Positions 25,060 to 64,000 of a stretch of DNA of 64,000 bases are shown here, one piece after another (within the stretch, counting starts at the first letter, position 1; each line of letters starts with the position of its first letter). Under the pieces are notes generated by a model that saw only the letters and a list, made by a program, of their open reading frames with translations, was not told the origin of the DNA and ran no database searches. Source of the stretch: Rhynchobatus australiae (Eukaryota); NCBI GenBank assembly GCA_034780895.1, contig JAUZTB010000127.1, positions 74,213,071 to 74,277,070 on the forward strand, written 5' to 3'. The position numbers and the translations under genes were made by a program.

Positions 25060-26430
25060 GAAAAACTTGGGAACCGTAGGCCAGTAAGTCAAACATCTGT
25101 GGTAGGTAAGTTACTGGAGAGGATTCTGAGGGATAAGATACACAAACATCTAGAAAGATGGGGATTGATTAGGGGTAGGTAGCATAGCTTTGTGCATGGG
25201 AGATCATGTCTTACAAACTTGATTGAGCTTTTTGATGAGGTGACCAAGAAAGTTGATGAGGGCAGGGTGGCAGATGTGGTTAATATGGACTTCGGTAGGG
25301 CCTTTGATAAGGTTCTACAATTCTGGCTAAAAGGTTCTGGCTAATTGGATACACAATTGGCTTGATGGTAGAAAGCAGAGGGTGATGGTGGAAGGTTGTT
25401 TCTTGGACTGGAGGCCCGTGACTAGTGGTGTGTCTCACAGATCAGTAATGGGCCTATTGTTGTTTGTCATCTATATCAACGATTTGGATAAGAATGTACA
25501 GGGCATGGTTAGTAAGTTTTCAGATGACACTAAAATAGGTAGTATAGTGGGCAATGAAGAAGGTTATCAAAAATTACAGAGGGATCTTGATTAGCTGAGT
25601 AAGTGGGCCGAGGAATGATAAATGGAGTTGAATTCGGATAAGTGCGAGGTGTTGCATTTTAGAAAGTCAAATCCAGGTCGGATTTTCACAGTGAATGGCA
25701 GGGCCCTGGGGAGCGTTGTAGAACAGAGGGACCTTGGAGTACTAGTACATGGTTCACTGAAAGTGGAGTCACGGGTAGACAGGGTGGTGCTTTTGGAACG
25801 CTGGCCTTCATAAATCAGGGCGTTGAGTATAAAAGTCAGGAGGTCATGCTGCAGGTGTACAGGATGCTGGTGAGGTCACACTTGGAGTATTGTGTTCAGT
25901 TTTGATCACCCTGCTACAGGAAGTATGTTATTAAACTGGAAAGAGTGCAGAAAAGATTTACAAGGATGTTTCCAGGACTTGGGGAACTGAGTTCTAGGGA
26001 GAGGGTGGACAGGCTAGGACTTTATTCCTTAGAGCATAGGAGACGAAGAGGAGATCTTAGAGAAGCGTATAAAATCATGAGGGGCATAGATAAGGTGAAT
26101 GCACTCAGTCTTTTTCCCAGGGTCAGCGAATCAAGAACGAGAAGGAAAAGGTTTAAGGTGAGAGGGAAAGATTTAATAGGAACTTGAGGGGCAACGCTTT
26201 TACGCAAAGGGTGGTATCTATGTGGAATGAGCTGCCAGAGGAACTGATTGAGGCAGGTACAATAACAATTTTTAAAAAACAGTTGGATAGGTATATGGAT
26301 TGGAAAAGTTGAGAAGGTTATGGGCCAAACGCTGGCAAATGGGACTTGCTTGGATGGGGCATCTTAGTCAACATGGACCAGTTGGGCTGAGAGGCCTGTT
26401 TCCATGCTGTGTAACTCTATGGCTCTATGA
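25060..26430 (+). mobile_element. 5'-truncated CR1 (HER1-like) LINE with RT and 3' UTR
   Basis: WRPVTSGV, LFVIYINDLD, SKFSDDTK, DKCEVLHF, QKRFTRM.PGL, RGDL.E.YKIMRG; multiple stops and frameshifts; ends in a ctatgg/ctatga tail. Confidence 0.95.
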
Positions 26431-27471: not shown

Positions 27472-28176
27472 CTTGCTGTATCATTTGACAATTTTCCTCA
27501 CAATTCACAACTCCACCAATTTTCATGTCATCTACAAACTTACTAATCAGACCACCTGTATTTACATCCAAATCATTTATATAAAAAAAGTCACAAACAT
27601 CCTTGCAGAAAACCACTGGTCACAGATCCCCAGTCAGAGAAACACCCTTCCATCATTACCTTCTGTCTTCTATGACCAAGCCAATTTTGTTATCTAACTT
27701 ACCAACTCACCATAGATCCCATATGACTTAATCTTACAAACCAACCTACCATGAGGGACCTTGTCAAATGTTTTACTGAACTCCATGTAGACAACATCCA
27801 CTGGCCTACCCTCACCAATCATCTTAGTGAGACAGAACCTCCCCCACACAAAGCCATGCTTACTTTCCCTAATGAGTCCATGGCTTTCCAGATGCAAATA
27901 AACCTTGTCCCTCAGAATCTTCTCCAATAATTTCTCTACCACTGATGTAAGGCTCACCAGGCTATAATTTCCTGGCTTGTTCCTGTAGTCCTGCTTAAAC
28001 AAGGAAGCAACATCGGCTTTTATCCAGTCCTGTGGCTTAAGAGGATAGAAAGATCTCTGCCAAGGCCTAACCAATCTCCTTTCCTTGCCTCCCTCAGTAT
28101 CCTGGGATAGATTCTGTCAAACCCCGGGGATTTATCCGCCTTAACATTTCTCAATATACACAACATCTCCTCCTTC

Positions 28177-35497: not shown

Positions 35498-37475
35498 TAG
35501 AGACACATGAGAGACTGCAGATGCTGGAAATCTGGAGCAACAAACACTAAGCACTGGAGGAACTCAGCAGGTCAGGAAGGAAATGAACAGTCGACGTTTC
35601 AGGCCGAGACCCTTCATTAGGACTGGAAAGGAAGAGGGCAGAGGTCAGAATAAAAGGGTTGGGGTGGGGGAGGAGCACAAGCAGACAGGTGATAGGTGAA
35701 TCGAGGTGAGGGGGGAAGGTAGGTAGGTGGGGTTGAAAGGGAGTGATGTGACAAGCTGGGAGGTGATAGCTGAGAGAGGCAAAGGGCTGAAGAAGAAGGA
35801 ATCTGATAGGAGATGACAGTAGGCCATGGAGTGAAGGGAGGGAGGAGGGCAGGTCATGAGGGTGAGGGAGGAGAAAAGGGAGAAGGGGCCACAGGAATGA
35901 GGGAAAACAAAAAGGGGGAGGAGGGAAAACAAAAGGGGGGAGAAGGAAAAACAGGTGAGAATAGTCACCAGAATTTAGAGAAATCAATGTTAATGCCATC
36001 AGATTGGAAACTACCAAGACAGAACGTGAGGTGTTGCTCTTCCAATCTGTGTCTGGCCTCAATGTGGCAGTAGAAGAGGCCAAGGACAGGCATGTCAGTG
36101 TGGGAATGGGAAGTGGAATTAAAATGCCTGGCCTCCAGGAGATCCTGGCTTTTGCGGCAGATGGAATGAAGGTGTTCGGCGAAGCGGTTCCCCCGAACTG
36201 CATCGGGTCTCACCAATGTAAGAGGAAGCCACACCAGGAGCACAGGAGACAATGAGTGACCCTGACGGATTCACACATGAAGCACTGCCTCACCTGGAAG
36301 GACTGTTTCACGCACTGAATAATGGTGAGAGAGGAGGTGTAGGGGCAGGGTGTAACACTTAGCACGGTTGCAGGGTTAAGTGCCTGGAGGGATTAATCGG
36401 TGGGGAGGGACGTGTAGACAAGGGAGTCACAGAGAGAGTGATCCCTGCGGAAAGTGGAGGGGAAGATGTGCCTGGTGGTGGGATCTTGTTGGAGGTGGCA
36501 GAAGTTGCACAGAATAATGTGTTGGATTGGGAGGGTGGTATGTGAGGACAAGGGGAACCCAATCCTTGTTATGTCAGGTAGGGGGGGGATGAGCTGAGGG
36601 CAGACATACTGAAAGTGGAGGAGTTGTGGGTAAGGACTGCATTGATAGTAGTGGAGGGGAAAAGAGGACATCTCGGATGTCCTGGAATGAAAAGCCTCTC
36701 ATGGGAACAGATGTGGCAGAGGCGGAGGAACTGAGCGAAGGGAATAGCATCCTTGCAAGTGACAGGGTGGGAAGAGGTGTAGTCAAGGTAACTGTGGGAG
36801 TCAGTGGGTTTGTAAAAGATGTCAGCAGTTAGTCAGTCTCCAGAGATGGAGACAAAGAGATCAAGACAGGGGAAAGAGGATGGACCATGTAAATTTGAGG
36901 GCAGGGTGGAAGTTGGAGGCAAAGTTGGTGAAATTGATGAGCTCAACATAAGTGCAGTCGTCAATGCAGCGGAGAAAGATTTGGGGAGCATTACTGGTGT
37001 AGGCTTGGAACATGGACTGTCCCATGTAGCCAACAAAAAGGCAGGCATAGCTGGGGCCCATGGCTACACCTTTAGTTTGAAGGAAGTGGGAGGAACTGAA
37101 AGAGAAGTTGTTGAGGGTGAGCACCAGTTCAGCCAGACGGAGGAGGGTGGTGGTGGAGGGGAGCCGGTTAGGTCTGTTGTCAAGAAAGAAGCAGAGAGCC
37201 TTGAGGCCTTCCCGATGGAGATGGAAGTGTACAGGGACTGGACGTCCATGGTGGAAATGAGGCAGCCAGTGCTGGGGAACTGAAAGTTGTTGAAGCGATG
37301 GAGGGCATGCAAAGTGTCACAAATGTAGGTGGGAAGGTACTGGACCAAAGGGGACAAAATGGAGTCAACATATGAGGACACTAGTTCAGTGGGGAAGGAG
37401 CAGGCAGAAACAATTTTGTGTGTGTGTTGCTCCAGATTCCAGCTTCTGTTGCAGCAGAACCTCTCACATCTCCAT
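35498..37475 (-). mobile_element. Penelope-like retroelement, 5'-truncated, frameshifted
   Basis: RT motifs MDVQSLYTSI, FLQTKGVAMGP, FLRCIDD, FHPALKFTWS, LDLFVSI; endonuclease end RFAEHLHS...ARHFNSTSHS...RLEEQHL.F.LGSFQSDGINIDFS; 3' terminal repeat with a hammerhead. Confidence 0.92.
35588..35625 (-). ncRNA. Minimal type I hammerhead ribozyme motif with a mutated core
   Basis: CAGTC-CTAATGA-AGG-gtctcgg-CCT-GAA-AC-GT-C-GACTG: 5-bp stem I, 3-bp stem II, palindromic ACGT stem III, GUC cleavage site. The core reads CUAAUGA instead of CUGAUGA. Confidence 0.8.
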
Positions 37476-37650
37476 AGATGGGAGGCTCATTTGCATGATG
37501 AACTGGGCTGCGTTCACAACGCCCTGCAATTTCTTCTGGTGGAGCAGTTGCCGTACCAAGCTGTGAAGCATCCAGCTGGGATGCTTTCTATGGTACATCT
37601 GTAAAAATTGATGAGGGTCATTTGGCATCATTCCAAATTTCCTTAGCCAT
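37476..37650 (-). mobile_element. Rex1-like LINE fragment
   Basis: NFYRCTIESIPAGCFTAWYGNCS; homologous to 6570-6740. Confidence 0.8.
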
Positions 37651-39949: not shown

Positions 39950-42900
39950 ACTTTAAATCTGAAGCAAGATTTATTAAAATGACCTGTACATTTCTGAGCA
40001 GATTGTTGAGAAAAATATATTTTTAATATACGACAATATAAAAAAACTTCCCATACAAATATTTCTCATTGGGTGCACATATTTCGCAGGAATACAACAT
40101 ATGTACAGTTGGCAACAAAACTCATATGTTTAAATACCTGAGATCAGACGTATTCTCAATATTAAATAGAATCTCTGCCATTAGAAGTTCTTACAGACAT
40201 TCCATTCCCTGAATACTCTCTCACACATACTTCTCACCAATACAATACTCCACTAGCTTCAATATTTATAAAGCAGAACATACATGAACTCTCAGCAAAA
40301 GCATTCCTTATGTCCATTTCTTTCCCTAGATGAGAATACAAATACTGTAATAATGCTGGTATTACACAAACTGTGTGCGGTCTCTGCATTGTTCCCATCT
40401 GTTAACTGCAATAAACAAAATATCACGGAAACTGCACTTGTGACTTCTCACTACACTATCCCAGCTCTCTGCTGAGAACACAGTTCTGTAGAGTTCAGTC
40501 ATGGAATGCCAGCAAAATAAAAAAAACAACTTGCCATTGTCCTTTTTACATAATGCCCTTTGCATTTCTTCATTTTATGGAGGAGTGGTTGGTAACTTCA
40601 GAGTTCTAAAAAGGGACTGGGGCTGAAAAAAGCCATTGTGAGACCCAACATATCATGAAATATGTATGCCAGGCACATGATCACTCAAAGTCATCTGCAT
40701 AAATAGTTTCTAAAATCATTCAATCAAAACTCCAGAACATCTTACCATACTTCTTTGATAGCTGCCTTCCTTTGCCTGACATTTCCATAATTATAGCATT
40801 TTGAAATTCATTGCCACATTACTTCACATTTGTTTAATGCTAACTTAAATGCCTATTCATAGGATGAAGACATTTACTTTGAGAGAAGGTTCAGAGCTTA
40901 TCAGGAGGCTAAAAGTAAATTGTTTACGTTATCACAGTTTCTCATTCGTAGAAATAGCTCTTGTGGCTGTTGCATCTCTAATGTTCTGGGATTGTAAACT
41001 TACAAACCCATCCTCCCCCTTCGAGCCTCCTTTAAATAGTTGGCCTCTCTTTTACTTTGAACCAATTAATTTATCTTCATTGCACTTAAGAGTTCAACTT
41101 ATCTTTCCTGAGGTCTTTTTGATCATCTTCTGGCTCTTAGATGCAAGTTAAGAACAAATAAATTTGGGAACTGCAATAAAGATCTATCAGTCAAGCTCAC
41201 GCTTCTTGTCATTTTGTAACCTGAGGGCCAAGCTAAGGATTTGAACCTGGAGCACATGCACTTGAAGTGAGGGGCAAGTCCAGTGTCTCAATTAACTTGA
41301 CAAACTATTTTGGCTCTGAACAGCTGGATGAGTCTTGGTTTGGTTTAATTGAACTGAAAGTAAAATTTCCAGGTGCTGAAAGGACCAGAGGGGCAATCAC
41401 TGAGGGTAATTATAATGTTTTGTAATTGCCGCCTCATTGAAAGTGATCTCGGCTCAGCAGGATCATAGCCAAGCAACAAGAGTTGCTCTGTCTCAAACCA
41501 GTGCAAAGTTGTTAATACAATGAAAGCGAGGGCACATGATACCCAAAGATGGCAGAATTAACTGGAGTCCATTATGTGTCCTCAATCTCTGCTCTCAAGT
41601 CTTCTGCTACTGAATTTTAATTTAAGCCCCTCACAAAAAGACAAACATTTCAAATTCACTGCCTCTAAGGACTGTGTCTCAGCTTGAATATTAGGTTAAG
41701 CCAAGGAAAAATGCCTCAGTAATTGATTTGTGAAAGAAACATGAAAATTAAATGTGAAGGCAATGCAAGAGAAATAAAATTTCATTGGGGTGGGGAGGGA
41801 GCATATTTTCTTCATTATCTGACAATTGAAATGCAGATGATAAGCCCTTCAAGCACTCAAGTAGCAAATCTCTTCTAGTCCTCAAAAAAAGGTAGCATTA
41901 TAATATTTATTGCAAAAGATCGAACCTTTCAAGGTTCACATAGGAATCACCCTCCTGCTTGAGGCGTTGTCACAGCCAGGCCAGAGCAACATGGAACAAA
42001 CCAGTTACAACAGTGAACTAATCAGTGGTAAAAATAACTAGAAGTATTTACAGGGCGTTTGGAATGGTAGGATTAGAAATCCATTTCAAAATTCCACTCC
42101 TCCAGTCATAATGAAATTTAAAACAAAACAGCAAAATAAATATCTAGAATAGGATAAGTAGTGGCAACAGGAAAATGTCACTGTATTTTGCTATTGGGAT
42201 TGTGAGACAACAAAAACACACCTCTGTGGCCTGCATTAAGATATGGGGTGGGTTGGTCCACCCAAGACTAGCTGAAATAAACAGAAACTGTTGAAGGTAA
42301 CTAAGATGACAAATTTAAAAAGTTAAATCAAAGTAGTAAAATGTAATGAAATGTCAAAGTTCTATCAATGCTCTTCCTTTATGGAAGACATCCAAAAATA
42401 GAGGGATCAGGACAATTTCAAGTCCTGAGGAAAAGTTCTAAAGGACCTTTATTTTCATTGGAGAATGAAGACTCCAATAGTTTCAGGTAATCAAAAAGCT
42501 TAGATAAGCTATTTACCTCCATCTAGTAGGGTGGAGGNNNNNNNNNGGAGGGTGGGTCTACGCAGAGACCCGAGGGAAGGGGTCTTTGAATTTTCCTTAG
42601 TGTTTGGCTTCAGAACTGCAAGGACCTAGAGTTTCATTTGCCTGTTCCATATAGAGTAATAGTATAACCAATGTACAGAAAGAAAAGGGAGACAAATACA
42701 TGAACATATTTTGTACATTTAGAAGTACACAAGTACTATACCTGATACCCTATGTTAAGGTACCATGTCTGGAAAGGTTAAGATAAAATATTAGTGCAGC
42801 ATTCCACAGAAATGGCAAAATCTTATACAAGCTTGAGGTTAAAAATAACCTCAAATAGTTTAAACAGCCAGATTTACTACAGAGAACAGCTTGTGTCACT

Positions 42901-43511
42901 TCAATGGTATACGTCCACAATAAATGCTCGAAACACATTACTCCACTTCAGTTAAGCAACTTTTCACATCGGCCACATCAGACTCTAGCCAACATTTCCC
43001 CACATACACAGTTTAAAAAAAACTCCTGGACATTAAATTCTATATCCCCCTTGCACTTCCTTTTTTCCATTGTTTGACAGCCTCAACTCCATTTCAAGCC
43101 ATTTCCTTTCATTTATAATTTTTTACCAGCCGAATATGTTGCAAGCTACATCACTGTTGGCAGATTTACAACAATTCATACCAAACCAAGTCTGATAACA
43201 AAGTTAGAACAACTTTGAGTTAAAATTAAGATGCTAGTCTTCTTTGTTCCAAATGCATGGGTGCAAGAATTGTCAGCAGTTAAGGGGTGGCAGCTACAGG
43301 AACAGACAACAAAATTCAACCAAGAGTTGGAAATTATTGTAAGAAATGGGTTGGAGGGCCACCTTCTTCTGAACCTGTGTTGCAACGTGTCTAGCTGGTA
43401 TAGGTAGAAGACCAGTCACCATTCAATGACAGCTGCCACAATGCACACTCAAATAAACCATCTTTCTTCCATCTGAAGTGTCAGTTCACTTCAGATTTTG
43501 ATCTTTAATCC
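39950..43511 (-). other. STARD8: Probable long 3' UTR of STARD8 (about 3.5 kb)
   Basis: AT-rich stretch after the stop with no recognisable TE. Minus-strand AATAAA at 42453-42448, 41911-41906 and 39975-39970. Extent is inferred without transcript data. Confidence 0.55.
39970..39975 (-). terminator. Candidate distal polyadenylation signal AATAAA
   Basis: Plus-strand tttatt. A UGUA element lies just upstream and a GU-rich tract (tttgtgttcactgtg) about 30 nt downstream on the minus strand. Confidence 0.5.
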
Positions 43512-43608
43512 TTATGGATTTGATGGCAGAAAGGAGTCCCGTATCCTAGCAACCTCTACAGCACAAAGATATCCTGAGACCTTGTTGTACCATTCAGGAG
43601 TCCTGCCC
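43512..43608 (-). CDS. STARD8: STARD8 terminal coding exon
   Basis: Translated by hand: RGRTPEWYNKVSGYLCAVEVARIRDSFLPSNP*; ttttccag|G acceptor; TAA at 43514-43512. Confidence 0.94.
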
Positions 43609-44681: not shown

Positions 44682-44858
44682 CTTAGGTCAGTTCGGGAGA
44701 TGTATGTGAGCCGGGATCTACCTGAACCACAAGGCTCAACCAAGTACTGCGAGTTCAGTACTACTGCTCTTACACCTCCCTCCAAGTGTACTGAGTCATG
44801 TTCAATAGAGACTGTTACCAGAATGCACAAGTCCTTTAGCAAATCAGCTCGCCAGGTC
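44682..44858 (-). CDS. STARD8: STARD8 coding exon, START domain
   Basis: RTWRADLLKDLCILVTVSIEH...GGVRAVVLNSQYLVEPCGSGRSRLTYISRTDLR; tttcag|G acceptor, AG|GTATGT donor; 177 bp. Confidence 0.96.
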
Positions 44859-47857: not shown

Positions 47858-48075
47858 CTCAGAACAACAAAGTCTCTCCTGGGATGTGGTGCCATGCTGT
47901 CCAGAACATAATGGAAGATATCCGTATTTTTGTCCAAATGTTCCACGATTTTTCCCATCAACACATCATCATCCCAGAGATGTCGCTCTCGGAGCAGACG
48001 GTTTAACACCGAGTTTGGGGGCGCTTCTATTTCAGTCGTTACCTTCCACAAACGAATGGGATATCCATCACCAAC
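47858..48075 (-). CDS. STARD8: STARD8 coding exon, START domain
   Basis: VGDGYPIRLWKVTTEIEAPPNSVLNRLLRERHLWDDD...SMAPHPRRDFVVLR; ctggtag|GTT acceptor, AG|GTATGA donor; 218 bp. Confidence 0.96.
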
Positions 48076-50836: not shown

Positions 50837-51058
50837 CTTTTTGTAAGAAAGCTCTGTGTTCACAGGTCCTACGGTGTTGGTCCAGCCTTTAAACTTCTCT
50901 CCCGCGTTTTTTAATAGAGCCTGGATTGAGTCCTCCATGTGGGCCACATACTCCTTGACCATGCCTCCAGGATGTCTCCTGAAGACCTCCATGGGCAAAG
51001 GCTGAGCATCAGCTGCAATATAGGAGTTCCGAGACTGCACCATTCTAGCGTGGGGGAT
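50837..51058 (-). CDS. STARD8: STARD8 coding exon, RhoGAP-START junction
   Basis: IPHARMVQSRNSYIAAD...IQALLKNAGEKFKGWTNTVGPVNTELSYKK; tcattag|ATC acceptor, AAG|GTATTA donor; 222 bp. Confidence 0.95.
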
Positions 51059-51719: not shown

Positions 51720-52345
51720 CATGGTTATTCCCTGGAACCTGTGAGGATCCATGTGGATGAGGAGGTAAAAAATTTAATACCATTATTCAAGGAGGGTGAG
51801 AGGAAGTGGAGAACTACAGACCAGTTATTCTGGCATCTGCTGTAACAAAGGACTTAAAAAAAAAGGATAAGATTAGGCAGAGTCCACTTTGTTTTATGAA
51901 AAGAAGATCATGTTTGGCAGATCTAATGAGGTATTTTGCTGATATGATTTGGCAGAGTCACTCAGAAGGAACTTGTAGGTGCAGTATTACTGAATTTCCA
52001 AAAGTCATTCGATGTAATGCTACACAAAAGGCCATTAAATCAAAAAGAACCCAAACAGTTAACAGGAACTGAGGATTACTTAACCTGTTTAAAAAAAACC
52101 ACAATATCCTCACTATTGGGTCAATTTGAGATTGGCAAAGTGTTACAAGGGGTGCCACAGCATCAATCCTGTACTCAGATATTTACAATCTGTACTAACA
52201 TCTTAGATGAAAGTACAAGATGTAACATACCCAAATTTCCAGACGATACAAGATGGAAAGTAAACTGTGAGAATGACATGAAAGGAACATATCCAAATTA
52301 ATTGAGTGAACCAGAAGGTGATGGATGAAGTATAAAATGCGATGT
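51720..52345 (+). mobile_element. Old CR1 RT fragment in a STARD8 intron
   Basis: ENYRPVILAS, FMKRRSCL, GVPQ, KFPDDT. Confidence 0.8.
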
Positions 52346-52945: not shown

Positions 52946-53060
52946 CTGGAAAAGTTTCTTGCACTCTGTGATCATGTGACCCAATCCTTTGGTTGCCGCC
53001 AGATTCTCGCTGAGGTCCCTCTGATCAGGCTTACTTAGAACACCTCTCCTTCGGATCATC
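52946..53060 (-). CDS. STARD8: STARD8 coding exon, end of RhoGAP (too short for the ORF track)
   Basis: Translated by hand: RMIRRRGVLSKPDQRDLSENLAATKGLGHMITECKKLFQ; ttctag|G acceptor, CAG|GTACCT donor; 115 bp. Confidence 0.95.
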
Positions 53061-54267: not shown

Positions 54268-54478
54268 CTTGGTGAGGAAGTTTCTTTCTTCAGCACATTG
54301 AGGTGGAATAGCGATGGTGCAAGGCACACGGCCAGGTTTCCAGCAGTCATCTGGTTTTGCTGTACAGATGCAATGTCACTTAGGAAGTACAACAACGACT
54401 GAAGAACCTCACGGTTCTCATCTGGCATCAACACAATGGCAGCCTGAACAGCTTGGAGACGTTGATCCATTGGCACAT
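54268..54478 (-). CDS. STARD8: STARD8 coding exon, RhoGAP
   Basis: YVPMDQRLQAVQAAIVLMPDENREVLQSLLYFLSDIASVQQNQMTAGNLAVCLAPSLFHLNVLKKETSSPR; catcag|AT acceptor, AG|GTGAGC donor; 211 bp. SDIAS and MTAGNL are STARD8-type. Confidence 0.97.
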
Positions 54479-55556: not shown

Positions 55557-55755
55557 ACTGATAGATCTGTAGAAAGGTTTCTGTCAGTTTGCTGGTGAAG
55601 ATAGGTTCTGGAAGGTCTCGGAAATATTGCTTTAACAAGTCTGCTACATCAAACGCTGATTGACCCTGATAATTAACATTGTCAGGATTGTTTTCATTCA
55701 TCTGCCTGAGGACCTGGATTCGCGATTTCACACCTGACTTCCTGAAGATACCAAC
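55557..55755 (-). CDS. STARD8: STARD8 coding exon, RhoGAP arginine finger
   Basis: VGIFRKSGVKSRIQ...DVADLLKQYFRDLPEPIFTSKLTETFLQIYQ; acacag|GTT acceptor, T|GTGAGT donor; 199 bp. Catalytic Arg and the KxYFR motif are intact. Confidence 0.97.
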
Positions 55756-56976: not shown

Positions 56977-57136
56977 CTGGCCCATGCACTGACTACGCAA
57001 GTAGCGCATGGCTTGTTGAATACTTTGAGGTAGCGGCTGCCCTGACCTCTTAACGTTTATTATTGGCGGAACACCAAATACATTTTTGCCTCGGTAATCT
57101 GGTTCCTTGCTTCTTTTCATGAATTTGGGAACACCC
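56977..57136 (-). CDS. STARD8: STARD8 coding exon, start of RhoGAP domain
   Basis: GVPKFMKRSKEPDYRGKNVFGVPPIINVKRSGQPLPQSIQQAMRYLRSQCMGQ; ctgtag|G acceptor, CAG|GTGTGT donor; 160 bp. Confidence 0.96.
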
Positions 57137-59618: not shown

Positions 59619-59792
59619 CAGTTCCAGCCCTGCTTGCTGCGGACAGCATATTTCTCCATGATGGCAGTCAATCGCAGTAGGGAGAATCGCTGCAGGAGGT
59701 TGAGTTGAGCTGCTGACTGTCTGTTGATTTCCATTGAAGCAGAATTCAGGCTGGGGCGGTGAGNNNNNNGGAAACTGTGCCAGCGCAGCTTC
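59619..59792 (-). CDS. STARD8: STARD8 coding exon (RKLRWHSF...KQGWNW)
   Basis: Acceptor tttccttag|G, donor TG|GTCAGT; 174 bp, phase 2 to 2. The six Ns keep the frame and fit the expected QNS. HRPSLNS..EINRQ and KQGW are STARD8-type. Confidence 0.95.
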
Positions 59793-63031: not shown

Positions 63032-64000
63032 CTGTTTGGTCTGGTTAATGAAGCCCCTACTCCAGAATCTCTCCGATCCCTCATCTCCATTTCTTCAGGT
63101 TCATTTAGTGAATTCCCAGTACTATCAAAATCACTTGCAGTTGTCCCCACATCAGACATTGAGCGGTCTTCAAAATTCAAACCTTGCAAAGGAAAAACTG
63201 TTTCTCCAGTAGAGTCAGACTCAGTGTCATTATAATCAGTGCACATCATTTTTGACCAACTGTCTACTCTCTGCCGTAATCCATTGACATGCTTCAAAAC
63301 ATCATCTAGTTGTTTAAAGTAGCACTCAGGTCCACCTATGCTATTGTACAGGTGGGTCTCAGGAACATTGTCATAAAAACTCTGCCTGCTGTCCACAGAG
63401 CTACAGGAATCCCTTCGTCCTTGAAACCCCAGTCGCTGAAAATTGTTGCTGCTATCACATGTAGACATTCCAAAGGAGCTGTTTCCTGATCTCCATTTTA
63501 CCAAATGGTTATCAGCACCTGGACACAAGCTTTCTATGGAGAGGGCTTTGGGGAAGGTTCCTAATTTGTGATTTGTTGGGATGCGAACAACACAATCTTC
63601 TTGAGAACACATATTGTCTCTTCTATTATGATTGGAGGTCGTGAAGCCCATTTCATAGTCTTCCAAGTACAGTCCACAATGCTTTGAGCCATGGCTCCTA
63701 GATTTGCCTGAAGAATGTTCTGTACATCCACAATCAGCCAGTGAAGGAATGCCAGATTGAGATAAGTTATTCATCAAGTTCTTGGGGCTCTGGCTCCCAG
63801 TTTTCAGAGGACTGGAGCTCTGTAATGGTTCATTGTATTGCTGTAATACTGTTTTGATACTTTTTGTCTCTTTATTCTTTGAAGCCATTTTGGCTTTGTT
63901 CCGAAGGGTTTTAAACCGAAGGGATTCAATCCGTCTAAGAAAGCTCTTGGTCCGCTGTTTTCTGGGGTTCTCTGTGAAGTCTGGAGTGGTTTGATCTCCA
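63032..64000 (-). CDS. STARD8: STARD8/DLC3-like RhoGAP: large serine-rich linker exon (5' part lies outside the window)
   Basis: Frame is open from the window edge (GDQTTPDFTENPRKQRTKSFLRRIESLR...) through ORF 63028..63888. It carries DLC-family motifs GTFPKALSIESL, SFYDNVP (tensin-binding SIYDNV type), LDDVLKHV (LD-like) and RDRRDSGVGASLTRP. Donor AG|GTAGAG, phase 2. Confidence 0.95.

Follow-up and report, generated by a model that had tools for sequence, protein, structure and literature searches.

The window, i.e. the whole stretch of 64,000 nucleotides analysed here from Rhynchobatus australiae, carries on its minus strand the coding frame of the RhoGAP gene STARD8 (DLC3), which runs through ten exons from 63999 to 43512 and comprises 2541 nt with 847 codons open. 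The 5' exons, among which the N-terminal SAM domain of the family would be expected, lie beyond the window end at position 64000, and the gene is seen from the large linker exon onward. Marks of a pseudogene are absent from the ten exons in the window (9 of 9 introns GT-AG, zero internal stops), and 815 of 846 residues are identical to those of record P0001. The exons and the elements at the 3' end of the gene are as follows:

63032..63999, minus strand: large Ser-rich linker exon, truncated by the window end, with a basic stretch, SFYDNV and LDDVL
59619..59792, minus strand: exon of 174 nt (gene model), with 6 N bases at 59764-59769 and the frame kept
56977..57136, minus strand: exon of 160 nt where the GAP region starts (tblastn/gene model)
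55557..55755, minus strand: RhoGAP exon of 199 nt that contains the invariant stretch GIFRKSG (gene model and alignment)
54268..54478, minus strand: RhoGAP exon of 211 nt (PF00620, E 3.4e-14)
52946..53060, minus strand: RhoGAP exon of 115 nt (tblastn/gene model)
50837..51058, minus strand: exon of 222 nt bridging GAP and START (tblastn/gene model)
47858..48075, minus strand: START exon of 218 nt (PF01852, E 1.3e-13)
44682..44858, minus strand: START exon of 177 nt (PF01852, E 3.9e-10)
43512..43608, minus strand: last coding exon (phase 2, with an AG acceptor), which spans 97 nt as far as the stop and encodes the last START helix and LPSNP
43512..43514, minus strand: TAA stop of STARD8, a derived state where sharks have an Arg codon in the tail; the next base is G (TAA-G)
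43494..43511, minus strand: relic of the PDZ ligand, untranslated, GLKIKI (shark GLETKI), where E>K and T>I are each due to a single transition
43504..43509, minus strand: candidate proximal poly(A) signal, the hexamer ATTAAA, which arose through the E>K drift
43491..43493, minus strand: ancestral TGA at the family stop position, from alignment to shark protein
43486..43497, minus strand: shifted frame NLK-stop, from which the ends of Scyliorhinus (NLN), Chiloscyllium (HLQ) and Stegostoma (HMK) lie within 1, 2 and 2 base changes

Overall, 16 runs of N were counted in the window, one of which falls inside a STARD8 exon (59764-59769) and one in the probable 3' UTR (42538-42546). No neighbouring host gene was detected by a Pfam scan of the 19 longer ORFs outside the STARD8 exons. 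Retroelement remnants were noted at four places: 27697-28116 (minus strand) matches reverse transcriptase weakly (E 0.0098, below the Pfam cut-off), and 25906-26184 (plus), 51800-52298 (plus) and 35968-37486 (minus) resemble LINE or Penelope elements to the eye only, with zero Pfam matches.

The deduced protein contains a RhoGAP followed by a START domain (PF00620 and PF01852 on single exons; match to PDB 2PSO), the same linker-RhoGAP-START layout as in human DLC3/STARD8. Batoid and shark proteins are 93 % identical in the GAP and 87 % in the START domain. Retained in the ray are the GIFRKSG stretch, the Arg of which we take to be the arginine finger, and the basic stretch, SFYDNV and LDDVL of the linker, which presumably bind membrane, tensin and talin, respectively. 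The available part of PMC11253157 is a partial source for these three roles of the motifs in DLC3. At about residues 206-212 of the frame, the linker motif, presumably the one binding tensin, reads SFYDNV in 6/6 batoid sequences vs S(I/V)YDNV in 7/7 sharks. Within the last helix (43608-43515, minus strand), all elasmobranch STARD8 sequences read VSGYL, with Ser in place of the conserved Phe of bony vertebrates, which mostly have (V/A)FGHL there.

The gene had been named STARD8 in an earlier, sequence-only reading of the window, and a tree of 42 sequences agrees: the STARD8 clade received support of 100/100, elasmobranch STARD8 97/97, the batoid group 80/92 and the placement of the window beside P0001 95/87. 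The long branches of P0121, P0138 and P0143 are uncertainly placed in this tree, and the N-terminal part of P0121 fits the GAP region poorly. Identity of the linker exon amounts to 96 % with P0001, 86 % with Mobula, 78-79 % with skates and Narcine, 66-77 % with shark STARD8 and 38 % with shark STARD13. As judged from these sequence comparisons, the gene is the STARD8/DLC3 orthologue, apart from STARD13 and DLC1. By themselves, the tree and the identities would put the sequence among batoids, probably with the myliobatiform rays.

A class I PDZ-binding motif is defined as S/T-x-L/I/V at a free C-terminus. The ray protein ends in S-N-P, with Ser at -2 and Pro at 0, and does not conform to class I. 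On the minus strand, the window encodes DSFLPSNP, a TAA at 43514-43512, GLKIKI and a TGA at 43493-43491, and the codons after the TAA are GGA TTA AAG ATC AAA ATC. This string had been quoted correctly in the sequence-only reading; it begins at 43538, however, 8 nt beyond the end of the span 43491..43530 assigned to it. The idea of an ungapped relic with the TGA at the family stop position held in a tblastn comparison, where the Heterodontus protein P0009 runs across the TAA in an ungapped alignment with 36 identities in 39 residues and ends at the TGA. Among 6512 stops in the six frames of the window, the TAA at 43514-43512 is the only one followed by at least four of six identities to the shark tail and a stop at codon 7; in a simulation of matched composition, the same pattern arose in 6 of 2,000,000 cases. 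Since the TAA itself takes the place of a residue, the ray protein lacks seven residues relative to that of sharks, so that an end "six codons early" describes the six sense codons between the stops, not the loss to the protein. The missing PDZ ligand marks a ligand-less orthologue rather than a non-member of STARD8/DLC3.

Arg-Gly-Leu occupies the stop position and the next two positions in all eight shark STARD8 records among the matches listed, and the tail reads RGLETK(I/L) in 4/4 sharks with an intact tail. The stop thus replaced Arg, and the Leu of the relic predates it. A GAA-to-TAA-type change, as initially supposed, does not fit: Glu is the STARD13 residue at the aligned stop position, vs Arg in shark STARD8. 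From the supposed drift of GPETKI to GLKIKI, E>K (GAG>AAG) and T>I (ACC>ATC) remain, each a single transition; as Leu was already ancestral, only these two of six codons represent drift after the stop. The relic differs from the shark tail by a minimum of 4 base changes, all of them transitions on the path from CGA. The shortest path to TAA takes two changes from CGA or AGA equally, and CGA accounts for 12 of the 65 Arg codons of the STARD8 coding sequence in the window. The layout directly after the stop resembles a poly(A) site, ATTAAA being followed by CA (43480, 43475) and, at about 43459-43436, by a GT-rich run; an ATTAAA-type hexamer would occur in the relic by chance at about 0.024, and the next AATAAA is located at 42453.

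All five full-length batoid STARD8 records among the matches listed end at the ray stop or one residue later. P0001 (PSNP), Mobula (PSNS), Rhinoraja (PPNP) and Narcine (PSNL) share the end residue, and Leucoraja (RNPP) ends one residue later. With the window included, five of six full-length batoid sequences have the identical end residue and none has the family tail, the end point being common to skates, the electric ray and myliobatiform rays; STARD8 of Rhinopristiformes was absent from the matches listed. P0123 (142 aa, from a 960-base contig), probably transcript-derived as three exons are spanned by so short a contig, ends like Leucoraja, for which the contig end could be the cause. In Narcine (P0006), a Pro-to-Leu change has given the truncated protein the end S-N-L, which formally restores a class I PDZ ligand. 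The common batoid end bears out the earlier view of an old loss as opposed to a sequencing error. The split between skates and stingrays is Jurassic or earlier. On the sequences at hand, the simplest history would be one nonsense event in the batoid stem, between the shark-ray and the skate-stingray splits; the former is dated at 306 Ma (252-387) or 261 Ma (193-373), depending on calibration, in the accessible part of PMC3692497.

Among the matches listed, the family tail is retained in 4 of 14 chondrichthyan STARD8 records, namely in four sharks from four orders: Heptranchias with ETKL and Pristiophorus, Cetorhinus and Heterodontus with ETKI. Altered ends occur in Mustelus (EAKI), Scyliorhinus (ETKNLN), Chiloscyllium (GLHLQ) and Stegostoma (GLHMK), and the partial record of Callorhinchus has a divergent, longer end. 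Taken together, about five routes of loss are apparent in the 14 records (nonsense, two frameshifts, Thr>Ala at -2 and a divergent extended end), where those of Scyliorhinus, Mustelus and Callorhinchus are each known from a single species and a predicted protein and may reflect assembly or annotation errors. The odd ends of three of these sharks fit the shifted NLK frame of the window (only 19 and 158 of 8000 tripeptides lie within 1 and 2 changes of it), which points to frameshifts in the same exon and to homology of the DNA past the old stop between ray and sharks; the change in Scyliorhinus is consistent with one extra A in an A run. The truncation is not confined to this genome, and cartilaginous fishes have lost the tail on several occasions, of which it is one.

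That the relic is a former PDZ ligand, as the sequence-only reading proposed, is supported by the outgroups, shark and bony-vertebrate STARD8 carrying the motif. A class I end is present in 91 of 92 bony-vertebrate STARD8 sequences among the matches listed (100 named sequences minus 8 without the last exon; 2 unnamed and 6 STARD13 sequences set aside), the exception being one of two Megalops copies. The tail ends in Ile with the motif kept in 48 of the 91, which indicates that ETKI itself is constrained elsewhere. The paralogue STARD13/DLC2 has the same tail length and ends in GPETKI in 10/10 chondrichthyan species among the matches listed, including Pristis, Mobula, Narcine, Stegostoma, Mustelus and Callorhinchus; overall, ETKI was found in 113 of 118 STARD13 sequences among the matches listed. 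Fisher tests gave p 6e-9 and 0.002, with chondrichthyan STARD8 counted as 5/14 including the S-N-L of Narcine and with relatedness ignored; the STARD8 and STARD13 counts derive from the best 120-150 clusters and their rows are non-independent. Distant representatives (50 of 150 listed, at most 48 % identity) had a class I end in 28 of 29 cases where the match reached the tail, a group thereby selected on the tail, and in 12 of 21 where it stopped short, the latter being the fair count. No mammalian STARD8 was among the matches listed. The probable teleost duplicates Megalops P0025 and Albula P0133 end in EAKV and ETRS, i.e. the motif decays in duplicates as well.

A general decay of STARD8 in cartilaginous fishes was considered and rejected, as the gap in identity between STARD8 and STARD13 is present in bony vertebrates too (START domain, 73 % vs 82 %). 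The asymmetry of the paralogues is therefore not special to cartilaginous fishes.

In the AlphaFold model of the sawshark protein, the last helix ends at residue 515 and the seven residues lost in the ray (523-529) form coil with pLDDT <50. The model is weak (mean pLDDT 47.5, START region mostly 60-90) and describes a shark, not the ray, protein; according to it, all seven lost residues are outside the predicted START fold. A substitute end was sought within the window. A tblastn search with two full proteins revealed no second copy of the last exon, and a search of all six frames with the pattern E-[T/S]-x-[I/L/V]-stop yielded 8 matches, of which the 4 on the minus strand are all in short unrelated frames. 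Thirty sites resembling acceptors were examined from 44681 down to 30000, and none leads into a frame of matching phase with a class I motif at its end. Thus, the check for another terminal exon encoding ETKI/L, suggested along with the sequence-only reading, found none by any of the three approaches, and an alternative terminal exon with a class I end is rejected within the window scan, which covered the stronger acceptors. The stop stands in the context TAA-GGA and not in the leaky UGA CUAG. UAA-G ranks among the strongest terminators and UGA CUAG is the known leaky context according to the available text of bioRxiv 10.1101/2021.04.18.440353, and readthrough of the ray TAA appears unlikely from its sequence context.

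The reading preferred here, with a probability of roughly 70 %, is that of an intact batoid STARD8/DLC3 RhoGAP gene from which an old, fixed nonsense change removed the class I PDZ ligand, the loss being tolerated under relaxed constraint. In the batoid stem, an Arg codon would have turned into a stop; the simplest path would be CGA>TGA>TAA, i.e. two transitions starting at a CpG, with AGA offering an equally short one. The orphaned codons would then have become 3' UTR and drifted by two further transitions. By analogy with the human protein, ray STARD8 would be a folded, active GAP unable to dock on class I PDZ scaffolds, and its placement may depend on the basic stretch and the focal-adhesion motifs instead. 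Tolerance of the loss would reflect a weak constraint on PDZ targeting of STARD8 across cartilaginous fishes, plausibly as STARD13 keeps the same ligand: repeated loss in STARD8 together with full retention in STARD13 argues for relaxed constraint, possibly via redundancy.

The human ligand sets the frame for what the ray may have lost. In the accessible portions of PMC6343526 and PMC11253157, the ligand of human DLC3 is described to bind Scribble and SNX27 and to be needed for junctional or general membrane as well as endomembrane targeting. Human DLC3 possesses this C-terminal PDZ ligand, by which it is said to be distinguished, in contrast to the naturally ligand-less S-N-P end of the ray, and the shark ancestor was mostly Ile-ended, not Leu-ended. 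Loss of Scribble and SNX27 binding in ray STARD8 is inferred by this analogy. Scribble binding may have been weak already before the stop arose, given that the relic and three of four intact sharks end in Ile. Compensation by STARD13 is weakened by a review from the DLC3 laboratory, the available part of which describes human DLC2 as devoid of a class I ligand and of Scribble binding (PMC6343526). Human DLC2 ends in ETKI in PDB 2PSO; this and the 113 of 118 STARD13 sequences with ETKI clash with the statement on DLC2 in the consulted part of that review (PMC6343526). The same partial source gives DLC1 as lacking the motif (PMC6343526). Among fish, the DLC1/STARD12-like sequences P0143, P0147 and P0148 extend no further than the ray end point; the lack of a class I end in DLC1 represents a separate, older loss in another paralogue.

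A bolder extension of the preferred reading, which is possible but rather doubtful, holds that the division of labour among DLC proteins is reversed relative to mammals, with PDZ-scaffold targeting, whose motif occurs even in remote homologues, assigned to STARD13 and the ligand of STARD8 convergently lost at least 4-5 times along differing routes, the two frameshifts leading into one alternative frame. Unlikely, in turn, is an adaptive, convergent untethering, in which loss of the ligand was favoured and STARD8 moved off junctions and endosomes or off scaffolds occupied by STARD13. About five distinct lesions in 14 records next to a nearly invariant helix, and SFYDNV in all 6 batoid sequences vs S(I/V)YDNV in 7/7 sharks, would agree with such selection; relaxed constraint, however, predicts repeated loss equally well, and four sharks from four orders have kept the motif.

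Quite improbable is a stop younger than the batoid ancestor, produced by parallel nonsense changes at one CpG-containing Arg codon across batoid lineages. CGA is one step from TGA and in use at 12 of 65 Arg codons, and Leucoraja ends one residue past Rhinoraja, both of which would suit recurrent stops. Against them stand the end residue shared by five of six full-length batoid sequences, none of which kept the tail, and the time required for the second change to TAA and two drift changes in a group that evolves slowly according to the part of PMC3692497 at hand.

A class II PDZ ligand has the form hydrophobic-x-hydrophobic. Functional readthrough into a minor isoform ending in KIKI, formally such a ligand with Ile at both -2 and 0, would make use of the intact relic frame and TGA and is very improbable: TAA-G is a strong terminator, with UGA CUAG as the leaky context (bioRxiv 10.1101/2021.04.18.440353, available text), each drift change alters an amino acid and the positions affected are the two most conserved ones, and retention of a 21-nt frame needs no selection. 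That the stop stems from faulty sequencing or assembly, or that the gene is a pseudogene copy in decay, is hardly credible. The draft state of the window with 16 N runs, one within an exon, could be adduced in favour, but independent assemblies of four batoid genera end at or beside the same place, the frame is open over ten canonical exons and the GAP residues are conserved.

Turnover of PDZ ligands of this kind is already known; the STARD8 case was not found in print, and the literature search, from which most subscription journals and supplements fell outside, yielded no report on loss of the STARD8 tail in cartilaginous fishes. According to the accessible part of PMC3276551, PDZ ligands were reshaped in evolution by point changes to stop codons and by frameshifts. 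The cases described there are gains (PMC3276551, same part), whereas the ray represents the repeated loss of a deeply conserved ligand within one class and with a readable relic. Drosophila Cv-c, the single DLC orthologue of the fly, keeps the motif, unlike ray STARD8; its PDZ ligand is insufficient for localisation and Cv-c reaches the membrane in scribble mutants (PMC5854602, available part), the latter being a precedent for dispensability of the ligand.

The change is small and concerns one gene, with no phenotype attached. The relic constitutes a short, datable record of the decay of a linear motif in a 3' UTR. As the DLC3 ligand is called essential in human epithelial cells, chondrichthyans that have long lived without it provide a natural comparison for its need and its substitutes, strengthened by sister species with the tail and by the paralogue STARD13 that retains it. 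Should the division of labour indeed be reversed, nature would have knocked out the motif needed for junction targeting in human cells several times over, in rays, carpet sharks and catsharks. An ancient docking tag thus seems to be dispensable in cartilaginous fishes.
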